The translations under genes and the position numbers were made by a program. From NCBI RefSeq assembly GCF_003334785.1, contig NZ_QOWV01000001.1: a DNA stretch of 64,000 nucleotides; one strand, written 5' to 3'. Below, in pieces: positions 4,320 to 28,509 of this stretch (positions are counted from its first letter, which is position 1; every line of letters begins with the position of its first letter). The stretch is from Escherichia coli. GTDB taxonomy: Bacteria > Pseudomonadota > Gammaproteobacteria > Enterobacterales > Enterobacteriaceae. The notes beneath the pieces are model-generated. The model was given only the letters and a program-made list of their open reading frames with translations. It was not told the DNA's origin and did no database searches.

Positions 4320-5051
4320 TTACTTCTGGAACCATTTGTTGTAGATGGTTTCGTAAGTGCCATCTTTCTTCACTTTTTCCAGCGCAGTGTTGAGTTTCTG
4401 CTGCAGCTCAGTGTTGCCCTGACGTACCGCGATGCCGAGGCCAGTGCCGAAGTAATCTTTATCGGTCACTTTGTCGCCCACCGCCGCCAGTTTCGGGTTA
4501 TCTTTCAGCCACTCAGTGACCACTGCGGTGTCACCGAAGACGCCGTCGATACGCCCGTTTTGCAGATCCAGTTTTGCGTTCTGGTAGCTGTCATACGGAA
4601 CGGTAGTGATTTCCGGGTGCTTATCCATAATGAATTTCTGGTGTGTCGTCCCGTTCTGTACGCCGACTTTTTTGCCTTTCAGCTGATCAACACTGGTGTA
4701 TTTGCCTTGCTGACCCACAAACAGGGCAGAGTTGTCATAGTACGGGGTGGTAAACAGCACCTGCTTTTCACGCTCCGGAGTGATATCCATGCCCGCCATC
4801 ACGGCTTCTACGCGACGGAATTTCAGGCTTGGGATCAGGCTGTCAAACGCCTGGTTAGAGAAAGTGCAGGTTGCATCAATCTCTTTACACAGCGCTTGTG
4901 CCAGGTCGACGTCAAAACCAACGATCTGGTTGTTTGCATCAATCGATTCAAACGGAGGATAGGAGGCTTCGGTAGCAAAACGAATGGTTTCGGCAGCTGT
5001 GGCGGAAAGACTAAAACCTGCAATTAACGCGGCAATCAGAACTTTTTTCAT
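4320..5051 (-). CDS. artI: arginine ABC transporter periplasmic binding protein ArtI
   Basis: 243 aa with signal peptide; about 60 percent identical to ArtJ by eye. Confidence 0.95.
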   Translation of the reverse strand: MKKVLIAALIAGFSLSATAAETIRFATEASYPPFESIDANNQIVGFDVDLAQALCKEIDATCTFSNQAFDSLIPSLKFRRVEAVMAGMDITPEREKQVLFTTPYYDNSALFVGQQGKYTSVDQLKGKKVGVQNGTTHQKFIMDKHPEITTVPYDSYQNAKLDLQNGRIDGVFGDTAVVTEWLKDNPKLAAVGDKVTDKDYFGTGLGIAVRQGNTELQQKLNTALEKVKKDGTYETIYNKWFQK

Positions 5052-5068
5052 TGTTGTTATCCCGAATC

Positions 5069-5797
5069 TTAGTGAGAGAGATAGTTTTTAAATGCTTCGG
5101 TTTGCGGCTCGGTAAAGCAGCTCGCGTCGCCTTGTTCTACGATATGACCATTTTCCATATACACCACTCGGCTGGCGGTTTTACGCGCCACTTCAACTTC
5201 GTGGGTGACGATCACCTGGGTAATATTCGTTTCTGCCAGCTCACGAATGATGCTGACGATTTGTGCCGTAATTTCCGGGTCCAGTGCGGCGGTCGGTTCA
5301 TCGAACAGCAGTACCTGCGGTTCCATCATCAACGCACGGGCAATAGCAACACGCTGCTGCTGACCACCAGAAAGATGCAGCGGGTAACGATCGCTATAAG
5401 GTTTGAGACGCAGACGTTCCAGCAGTTTTTCTGCACGGGCCAGCGCCTGATCTTTACTCAACCCCAGTACACGGCAGGGCGCTTCAATCAGGTTTTGCTG
5501 CACGGTCAGATGCGGCCACAGGTTGTATTGCTGAAACACCATGCCAACGTTACGACGCAAATCGCGAATCGCTTTGTCAGAGGGTGTTTTGGTGAAATCG
5601 AAATGGTTGCCTGCAATGTTGAGCGTACCGGAGCGCGGCATCTCAAGCAGATTGAGTACACGCAGCAGCGAGCTTTTACCCGCGCCGCTGGGGCCAAGTA
5701 ACACCAGCGTTTCGCCCTGTGGGCAATCCAGCGTGATATCGAACAGCGCCTGATGCGCGCCGTAGAAGCAATTAATGCCGTTTAATTGAATACTCAT
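5069..5797 (-). CDS. artP: arginine ABC transporter ATP-binding protein ArtP
   Basis: 242 aa from [13 protein letters not shown]; Walker [13 protein letters not shown] signature [15 protein letters not shown]; the track ORF has a 33-codon upstream extension that I reject. Confidence 0.95.
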
Positions 5798-25326: not shown

Positions 25327-27603
25327 ATGCTCAATCAAGAACTGGAACTCAGTTTAAATATGGCTTTCGCCAGAGCGCGCGAGCACCGTCATGAGTTTAT
25401 GACCGTCGAGCACTTGTTACTGGCGCTGCTCAGTAACCCATCTGCCCGGGAGGCGCTGGAAGCGTGTTCTGTGGATTTGGTTGCGCTCCGTCAGGAACTG
25501 GAAGCCTTTATTGAACAAACCACACCCGTTCTGCCTGCCAGTGAAGAGGAGCGCGACACACAGCCGACGCTGAGTTTTCAGCGTGTACTGCAACGTGCGG
25601 TCTTCCATGTCCAGTCCTCCGGTCGCAATGAGGTTACCGGTGCAAACGTTCTGGTCGCTATCTTTAGCGAACAGGAGTCGCAGGCGGCATATCTGTTGCG
25701 TAAACATGAAGTCAGCCGTCTCGATGTGGTGAACTTTATCTCTCATGGCACGCGTAAAGACGAGCCGACACAGTCTTCTGATCCTGGCAGCCAGCCAAAC
25801 AGCGAAGAACAAGCTGGTGGGGAGGAACGTATGGAGAATTTCACGACGAACCTGAATCAGCTTGCGCGCGTGGGCGGAATCGACCCACTGATTGGTCGTG
25901 AGAAGGAGCTGGAGCGTGCTATTCAGGTTCTCTGCCGTCGCCGTAAAAACAACCCGCTGCTGGTGGGGGAATCTGGTGTCGGTAAAACCGCGATTGCGGA
26001 AGGTCTTGCCTGGCGAATTGTTCAGGGCGATGTGCCGGAAGTGATGGCTGACTGTACGATTTACTCTCTCGATATCGGTTCTCTGTTAGCGGGCACAAAA
26101 TATCGCGGCGACTTTGAAAAACGTTTTAAAGCGTTGCTCAAGCAGCTGGAGCAGGACACTAACAGCATCCTGTTTATTGATGAGATCCACACCATTATCG
26201 GTGCGGGTGCAGCGTCTGGTGGTCAGGTCGATGCGGCTAACCTAATCAAACCGTTGCTCTCCAGCGGTAAAATTCGTGTAATTGGTTCGACAACCTATCA
26301 GGAGTTCAGCAACATTTTCGAGAAAGACCGTGCTCTGGCGCGTCGCTTCCAGAAAATTGATATTACTGAACCGTCGATCGAAGAAACTGTTCAAATCATC
26401 AATGGCCTGAAACCGAAGTATGAAGCGCACCACGACGTGCGTTATACCGCAAAAGCGGTGCGTGCGGCGGTAGAGCTGGCGGTGAAATACATTAACGATC
26501 GTCATCTGCCGGATAAAGCCATTGATGTTATCGACGAAGCGGGCGCTCGCGCACGCCTGATGCCGGTAAGCAAACGCAAGAAAACCGTTAATGTGGCGGA
26601 TATTGAGTCCGTGGTGGCCCGTATTGCACGCATTCCAGAGAAGAGTGTTTCTCAGAGTGATCGTGATACCCTGAAAAACCTCGGCGATCGCTTGAAAATG
26701 CTGGTCTTCGGTCAGGATAAAGCCATTGAGGCGCTGACTGAAGCCATTAAGATGGCGCGTGCAGGTTTAGGTCACGAACATAAACCGGTTGGTTCGTTCC
26801 TGTTTGCCGGCCCTACCGGGGTCGGGAAAACAGAGGTGACGGTACAGCTTTCGAAAGCTTTGGGCATTGAGCTTCTGCGCTTTGATATGTCCGAGTATAT
26901 GGAACGCCATACCGTCAGCCGTCTTATTGGTGCGCCTCCGGGATACGTTGGTTTTGATCAGGGCGGTTTGCTGACTGATGCGGTCATCAAGCATCCACAT
27001 GCGGTGCTGCTGCTGGACGAAATCGAGAAAGCGCACCCGGACGTGTTCAATATTCTGTTGCAGGTGATGGATAACGGTACGCTGACCGATAACAACGGAC
27101 GCAAAGCAGACTTCCGTAACGTGGTGCTGGTGATGACCACCAACGCCGGGGTACGGGAAACTGAGCGCAAATCCATTGGTCTTATCCACCAGGATAACAG
27201 CACCGATGCGATGGAAGAGATCAAGAAGATCTTTACACCGGAATTCCGTAACCGTCTCGACAACATTATCTGGTTTGATCATCTGTCAACCGACGTGATC
27301 CATCAGGTGGTGGATAAATTCATCGTCGAGTTGCAGGTTCAGCTGGATCAGAAAGGTGTTTCTCTGGAAGTGAGCCAGGAAGCGCGTAACTGGCTGGCCG
27401 AGAAAGGTTACGACCGGGCAATGGGCGCTCGTCCGATGGCGCGTGTCATCCAGGACAACCTGAAAAAACCGCTCGCCAACGAACTGCTGTTTGGTTCGCT
27501 GGTGGACGGCGGTCAGGTCACCGTCGCGCTGGATAAAGAGAAAAATGAGCTGACTTACGGATTCCAGAGTGCACAAAAGCACAAGGCGGAAGCAGCGCAT
27601 TAA
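25327..27603 (+). CDS. clpA: ATP-dependent Clp protease ATP-binding subunit ClpA
   Basis: 758 aa; two AAA+ modules with P-loops GESGVGKT and GPTGVGKT. Confidence 0.95.
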
Positions 27604-27627
27604 TCTGATTGTTAGGTAGGTTGGTCA

Positions 27628-27666
27628 AGTCCGTAATCTCGAAAGAGGTTACGGACTTTTTGTTTA
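27628..27666 (+). terminator. rho-independent terminator of clpA
   Basis: agtccgtaa-tctcgaaagagg-ttacggact stem followed by ttttt. Confidence 0.7.
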
Positions 27667-27815
27667 TGGGGTGGAGGAGGTTCAGACCCTTTTTTTAATG
27701 ATGATGGTAAGTTGTTGATAATTAGTGCTGCGGGAAGGTAAGGATAAAAAAGGGTGCTGCAGGAGAATGGGATGGTTTTGCTTTATTAACAACGGGCTAA
27801 ACGTGTAGTATTTGA

Positions 27816-27903
27816 GTTCACTGCCGTACAGGCAGCTTAGAAATTCACAGGTAACATACTCCACCCGCCCACCATGTTCACTGCCGTACAGACAGATAAA
27901 ATG
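27816..27903 (+). CRISPR. orphan type I-F CRISPR remnant (repeat-spacer-degenerate repeat)
   Basis: 28-bp repeat gttcactgccgtacaggcagcttagaaa at 27816-27843, 32-bp spacer at 27844-27875, second repeat 27876-27903 identical at 22/28 positions; no cas genes in window. Confidence 0.8.
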
Positions 27904-27905
27904 CG

Positions 27906-27934
27906 AAAAAAAAGCTCGCACTTTCGTACGAGCT
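27906..27934 (-). terminator. rho-independent terminator downstream of serW
   Basis: agctcg...cgagct stem followed by an 8-nt U-run on the minus strand. Confidence 0.55.
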
Positions 27935-27946
27935 CTTCTTTAAATA

Positions 27947-28034
27947 TGGCGGTGAGGGGGGGATTCGAACCCCCGATACGTTGCCGTATACACACTTTCC
28001 AGGCGTGCTCCTTCAGCCACTCGGACACCTCACC
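27947..28034 (-). tRNA. serW: tRNA-Ser (anticodon GGA)
   Basis: 88-nt sequence whose reverse complement starts GGTGAGGTGTCCGAG and ends CACCGCCA with a long variable arm; anticodon loop CUGGAAA. Confidence 0.95.
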
Positions 28035-28106: not shown

Positions 28107-28221
28107 GAAGAATTTTAATGATAATTATTGTTTGCTCATACTGTAAACAAGTTGTGCAGTATATCTACATCGAGACAAGTTACGGACTTATACTTCCAAA
28201 GTACTTCATACATATCACAAA

Positions 28222-28249
28222 ATAAAAAGGCCGGTTAAACCGACCTTTT
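28222..28249 (-). terminator. rho-independent terminator downstream of infA
   Basis: ggtcggtt-taa-aaccggcc stem (one G-U pair) followed by a U-run on the minus strand. Confidence 0.6.

Positions 28250-28287: not shown

Positions 28288-28509
<222 letters not shown>

Follow-up and report, generated by a model that had tools for sequence, protein, structure and literature searches.

A K-12-type orphan type I-F CRISPR array between clpA and serW of Escherichia coli carries a single spacer matching cas1f

The 64-kb stretch of DNA that we analyzed (hereafter the window) contains a short CRISPR array in the interval between clpA and infA. The clpA open reading frame ends at position 27603 and is followed by an intrinsic terminator (27627-27658, + strand), which consists of a 14-pair stem and a T run, lies upstream of the CRISPR leader and is kept in all six loci that were aligned (a K-12-like, an O157, a B2 orphan, a B2 I-F+, a B1 I-F+ and the divergent E69 locus). 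The leader (27659-27815, +) runs into a first repeat, GTTCACTGCCGTACAGGCAGCTTAGAAA (27816-27843, +), a single 32-nt spacer, TTCACAGGTAACATACTCCACCCGCCCACCAT (27844-27875, +), and a terminal repeat, GTTCACTGCCGTACAGACAGATAAAATG (27876-27903, +), so that, as read from the order of these features, the leader end of the array faces clpA. After two further bases the array adjoins the terminator (27906-27941, − strand) of serW, which encodes tRNA-Ser(GGA) (27947-28034, −), and a 108-bp A+T-rich segment (28116-28223) lies between serW and infA (28288-28506, −). The same locus is found in K-12 relatives, and over 12 kb the window is 99.975% identical to K-12 NEB 5-alpha.

The first-pass annotation of this DNA had placed the array between clpA and serW, had noted an interval of about 680 bp without a cas operon, and had called this the expected state of a K-12-like strain and nothing new. 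The coordinates agree with this placement, the clpA-infA gap measures 684 bp, and the element has been published before, as described below. A tblastn search with the six I-F Cas proteins of I-F+ E. coli detected no cas gene in the 64-kb window (no match had an E value below 0.27), and the best match to cas1f was an 11-aa translation of the spacer itself. With no Cas homologue in 64 kb and an interval of only 684 bp, the element counts as an orphan array, short of a complete system: the cognate cas1f, cas2/3f, csy1-3 and cas6f genes that adjoin the array in such a system are missing here.

The first repeat is a canonical E. coli type I-F repeat of the CRISPR-4 type. It scores 50.1 bits (E=1.3e-10) against CRISPR-DR4, the Rfam family of I-F repeats, which has a gathering score of 35; it conforms to the 28-nt I-F consensus with a 5-bp hairpin formed by positions 6-10 and 16-20 (−8.6 kcal/mol), and the 14 full repeats in the I-F+ locus of strain FDAARGOS_1292 (L001) all have the same sequence as this one. 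The second repeat is a degenerate copy that reaches 20 bits with the same family, below the threshold, and shares 22 of 28 positions with the first, from which it differs at repeat positions 17, 21, 23, 25, 27 and 28. The period of exactly 60 bp, given by the 32-nt spacer, and the A+T-rich leader are also those of an I-F array. The I-F repeat, the 32-bp spacer and the 22/28 second repeat that had been annotated on first pass are therefore all present. That annotation had also allowed that the repeat might prove to lie outside the I-F family or that the interval might belong to a longer array. The CRISPR-DR4 score and the identity to the L001 repeats settle the first point, and the exact repeat occurs only once in the 64-kb window (none expected from 100 shuffles), which, together with the lack of Cas homologues, rules out further array units and cas genes in the rest of the window.

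The second repeat had been described as decayed. The count of 22 matches stands, but this is how a terminal repeat ordinarily looks: the first 20 nt, which are repeat-derived and form the hairpin, are intact apart from a G17A substitution at position 27892, and its last 8 nt diverge as they likewise do in the terminal repeats of intact I-F arrays. G17A places a C-A mismatch in the hairpin stem, for which a folding energy of −1.4 kcal/mol was calculated, compared with −8.6 kcal/mol for both the canonical repeat and the O157-type terminal repeat, and the predicted 3' hairpin is not the preferred fold in this allele. On this folding model, the substitution could impair Cas6f binding and cleavage. 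G17A is the commonest variant of the terminal repeat in E. coli; for the exact terminal 28-mer, 2695 records gave a best match of at least 99% identity, and it also ends arrays that have a different last spacer (e.g., in O104:H4 and O111:H8). The substitution is either tolerated or neutral. When the established architecture of I-F crRNAs is applied to the window sequence, the predicted mature crRNA is 60 nt long (27836-27895, +) and consists of an 8-nt 5' handle, CUUAGAAA, which is the last 8 nt of the first repeat, followed by the 32-nt spacer and a 20-nt 3' hairpin; Cas6f would be needed to produce it.

Two mechanical open reading frames of 79 and 43 aa cross the array (27682-27921, −, and 27812-27943, +). 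In strain RM14516, RefSeq annotates a "hypothetical protein" (WP_012602745.1; L008 418-816, −) over the equivalent CRISPR array; this gene call is probably spurious.

In I-F+ strains, the array nearest to clpA (CRISPR4.1) has a leader homologous to that of the window, for which the G+C content is about 40% (0.39-0.44). From the end of clpA through the leader to the first repeat (window 27514-27844), the sequence is 95.5% identical to L001 3601-3931, and the last 36 bp of the leader before the first repeat are invariant across the six aligned loci. A consensus scan of the + strand of the leader found no sigma-70 promoter, and inspection by eye found only poor candidates. A perfect match to the integration host factor (IHF) consensus WATCAANNNNTTR, with the sequence TATCAACAACTTA (27708-27720, −), lies within another conserved block of the leader and overlaps the invariant TTGATAATTA. 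Matches to this consensus number nine in the window compared with about 2.9 expected; the match in the leader may be an architectural site for spacer integration.

The intact E. coli I-F locus, which is found mainly in phylogroup B2 (e.g., LF82, UTI89 and FDAARGOS_1292), occupies the same site, has the identical repeat and the 95.5% identical leader, and includes serW within it. In L001 the order is clpA, leader, array, cas1f, cas3f, csy1, csy2, csy3, cas6f, serW, second leader, second array and infA; thus, serW sits between cas6f and the second array in I-F+ strains, and the arrays are longer than that of the window. Homology between the window and L001 ends after the first repeat and resumes at the serW terminator, where window position 27907 corresponds to L001 13001, downstream of cas6f. 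The 11 nt at window 27896-27906, located between the truncated terminal repeat and the serW terminator, have no counterpart in the I-F+ locus. On the other side of serW, 698 bp of L001 (13210-13907) that comprise the second leader and array (CRISPR4.2) are absent from the window, and their place is taken by the unrelated 108-bp segment at 28116-28223, which had no match in the L001, L013 (E69) or L014 loci. Because this segment stands where the second array would be, a single deletion does not account for the difference between the cas-less and cas-containing loci, which consists of two replacement blocks. The comparison with an intact I-F strain, which had been proposed on first pass, thus shows a shared leader and the absence from the window of both the cas genes and the second array. 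This arrangement fits replacement by recombination at conserved flanks, as was suggested by Touchon & Rocha 2010 (PMC2886076). In FDAARGOS_1292, csy2 (L001 10430-11353) is annotated as a pseudogene with an internal stop, and the I-F system of this strain may itself be inactive.

The spacer matches the antisense strand of cas1f. It is identical at 30 of 32 positions to L001 4680-4711 (−), inside cas1f (4583-5566), and none of 100 shuffled sequences matched. The protospacer is directly preceded by 5'-CC, the canonical I-F protospacer adjacent motif (PAM), which is GG on the complementary (target) strand at the leader-proximal end and CC on the spacer-identical strand (Almendros et al. 2012, PMC3506596). 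Since the spacer matches cas1f beside the correct CC PAM, sequence comparison identifies it as a copy of I-F cas1f and therefore as an anti-cas spacer that targets its own type of system. This spacer is absent from the two I-F+ loci in which it was sought, L001 (complete from clpA to infA) and L014 (from clpA to the start of cas3f).

The degree of match differs among cas1f alleles. The common B2 allele matches at 30 of 32 positions (mismatches at positions 4 and 6) and a B1-type allele (ATCC 43896) at 29 of 32, with three mismatches. A scan of one genome per bacterial species found a single closer cas1f, that of Escherichia strain E69 (L013, CP089930.1), which matches at 31 of 32 positions with a mismatch at position 6 only. 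The E69 gene is 91.9% identical to the B2 allele and lies at the same clpA-proximal locus behind a 37-repeat array, in an I-F locus that is apparently active. Its protospacer, CC+TTCACTGGTAACATACTCCACCCGCCCACCAT, is the same as the O157-type spacer (L009), which it matches at 32 of 32 positions with the CC, making E69 cas1f the only allele found with a full match to this widespread anti-cas1 spacer. The window spacer is the O157-type spacer with a substitution at position 6, and in type I complexes position 6 is one of the bases, at every sixth position, that are flipped out and do not pair. An escape-mutation signature in extant cas1f was considered and is unsupported: the E69 and B2 genes differ at 80 of 984 positions (8%), which predicts about 2.6 differences per 32 nt, and only one was seen in the protospacer, so that there is no excess.

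The spacer is widespread in the species. The search of E. coli genomes that had been proposed on first pass returned matches in 2579 of 5426 complete genomes, 1433 of them exact and 888 with one mismatch (e.g., O157:H7), and in four genomes the spacer was found at two places. In I-F+ strains such as LF82, the match falls in the annotated cas1f gene. The cas1f gene itself is present in 241 of the 5426 genomes (~4%), and the spacer or a close variant occurs in about 2300 cas-less genomes.

To place the window array among others of its kind, we searched the L001 cas operon for matches to the spacers of the arrays at 11 further cas-less E. coli loci. Nine of the ten distinct spacers matched cas1f, cas3f or csy3 with one to five mismatches, and 5'-CC was present at seven of the eight target sites for which the flank was checked. 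By the measure of these matches, anti-cas spacers are shown to be common across the other orphan arrays. Other strains have two or three spacers at this site and, when the anti-cas1 spacer is accompanied, it is always the leader-distal (oldest) one, beside the terminal repeat. In strain YL3 the only spacer is a different one and matches csy3. In four arrays (L003, L006, L010 and L011) that also carry anti-cas3 spacers, the third or second spacer is a shortened anti-cas1 spacer of 28 nt, TTCACAGGTAACATACTCCACCCACCAT; it results from a 4-nt deletion inside the CCACCCGCCCACC run and indicates that decay does occur in some lineages. For the leader-proximal spacer of the B2 orphan array, GCACACGTCGAGCTGGTGGGGATTAATGCTGG (L007 541-572), a cas target was dropped, since no I-F cas match was found at up to eight mismatches; among E. 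coli genomes it matches only CRISPR arrays. Between the orphan array and serW, YL3 (L016 ~1000-1560) and one further locus (L004 646-781) have tandem copies of about 180 bp, each made up of a partial serW 3' end, the terminator and a GC-rich repeat that RefSeq annotates as "RtT sRNA"; these copies are absent from the window.

These features identify the element as a K-12-type orphan type I-F array, a known anti-cas array that has already been described. It lies at the clpA-infA site with no I-F cas genes, the latter being verified across the whole window, and its spacer matches an I-F cas gene, cas1f, beside the I-F PAM, CC. In the account of Touchon & Rocha 2010 (PMC2886076), all spacers of the cas-less array at this site match the Ypest (I-F) genes cas1, cas3 and csy2; they named the array "CRISPR3" or anti-CRISPR and argued that selection conserves it and that it pre-dates the extant cas genes. 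Diez-Villasenor et al. 2010, as cited in PMC2886076, put forward the proposal that such spacers caused the loss of cas genes. Almendros et al. 2016, as described in PMC8616872 and PMC5972030, found native orphan arrays to be constitutively expressed, to interfere with plasmids that carry I-F cas genes and to trigger primed adaptation. The Mojica group calls the single array of cas-less strains CRISPR4.1-2, in the CRISPR-III locus (PMC3903273). The window array shares with the orphan CRISPR4.1-2 anti-cas arrays (Almendros et al. 2016, Nat Microbiol 1:16081) its locus, repeat, leader, lack of cas genes, terminal repeat, short length and cas1-matching spacer with the I-F PAM; it is an instance of them without structural difference, and our results reproduce those of Touchon & Rocha 2010 and Almendros et al. 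2016. Among these arrays, the K-12-type allele is distinguished by its single spacer, the position-6 substitution relative to the O157 type and the G17A terminal repeat. The term "remnant" used in the first-pass annotation undersells an element whose kind is described in the literature as constitutively expressed and as able to destroy I-F cas plasmids that enter the cell (PMC8616872, PMC5972030, PMC2886076).

We consider it likely that the array acts as a latent vaccination against re-acquiring I-F immunity, which is the best explanation of its features. The conserved leader would drive transcription of the array, and the transcript would have no effect in this cell, which lacks Cas6f, the Csy proteins and Cas2/3. 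Upon entry of a cognate I-F cas operon, the incoming Cas6f would cut the resident transcript and the anti-cas1 crRNA would be loaded into the Csy complex, which would bind the CC-flanked protospacer of the incoming cas1f and recruit Cas2/3, leading to degradation of the incoming element; with an imperfect match, primed adaptation would add further anti-cas spacers instead. For this scheme, the identity of the array, the cas1f origin and PAM of its spacer, the lack of cas genes and the generality across strains come from the present analysis, and for expression and interference we rely on published work. A guide kept apart from its effector, and active only with a compatible one, is likewise found in self-targeting spacers and in isolated mini-arrays used in trans. 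This array differs from general mini-arrays in that its target is the effector operon itself, and for this reason activation and destruction would be coupled.

A different history, which follows the proposal of Diez-Villasenor et al. 2010 and which we regard as unlikely, is that an ancestral I-F system took up a spacer from its own cas1 gene, that the resulting autoimmunity favored cells without the cas operon, and that the leftover array persists by inertia and is idle today. The cas1f origin of the spacer and its CC PAM suit such a fossil as well as they suit vaccination, and several observations lean toward inactivity, namely the G17A substitution that weakens the terminal-repeat hairpin, the mismatch within the seed to the present-day B2 and B1 cas1f alleles, the 4-nt-deleted copy of the spacer in some lineages and the failure of the scan to find a consensus promoter in the leader. 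Nevertheless, native orphan arrays do interfere with I-F cas plasmids in the experiments summarized in PMC8616872. An array without function also sits poorly with the 36 bp of leader beside the repeat, which are invariant even in the divergent E69, and a plain deletion from the I-F+ locus would not yield the window, which contains 108 bp (28116-28223) that are missing there.

Several of the same observations bear on how well the K-12-type allele would perform as a latent vaccination. Position 4, which lies in the seed, is mismatched to both the B2 and B1 cas1f alleles (two mismatches in total with B2 and three with B1); in both types the position-4 difference is a synonymous AGT-to-AGC change. 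In type I systems, a seed mismatch typically weakens direct interference and still permits priming. Because of the position-4 mismatch and the further mismatches, direct interference against the B2 and B1 alleles may be weak, with priming the only response, and the weakening of the terminal-repeat hairpin by G17A makes it uncertain whether this allele is still competent. A speculative extension, and one that we doubt, is that the K-12-type allele is a weakened anti-cas module, in which case extant I-F operons would in part escape the most common anti-cas1 spacer and strains of the K-12-like type would be more I-F-permissive than the published model holds.

By default, any CRISPR spacer would be taken to stem from an earlier infection by a phage or plasmid, but no result of our searches favors such an origin here and we consider it very improbable. 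When the spacer was compared by blastn with phage and plasmid sequences, as had been suggested on first pass, no real match was obtained: among 50,697 phage records there was only a 17-nt chance match (E=3), and among 72,556 plasmid records only a weak match, itself located in a Vitreoscilla cas1f. The spacer finds its best matches in cas1f genes on chromosomes, beside the correct PAM, so that a phage or plasmid origin is effectively refuted. The earlier statement that the spacer records an old encounter holds in this modified form, in which the I-F cas1 gene takes the place of a phage or plasmid as the partner. Finally, although there are only two repeat copies and the second falls under the Rfam threshold, there is next to no chance that the structure arose by fortuitous duplication of an inverted repeat or belongs to the terminator of serW or clpA, a reading refuted by the identity of the first repeat to the I-F repeat, the exact 60-bp period, the conserved leader homologous to those of intact arrays and the arrays of two or three spacers at the same site in other strains.

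The locus is a textbook-grade curiosity and not a discovery, and it should be read as an orphan array of the known anti-cas kind, which is more than an uninformative remnant. The CRISPR array of this cell stores a guide directed at CRISPR machinery, and this helps to account for the low share (about 4%) of complete E. coli genomes with I-F cas genes. The resident anti-cas1 guide matters when an E. coli-type I-F system is introduced into K-12-like hosts.
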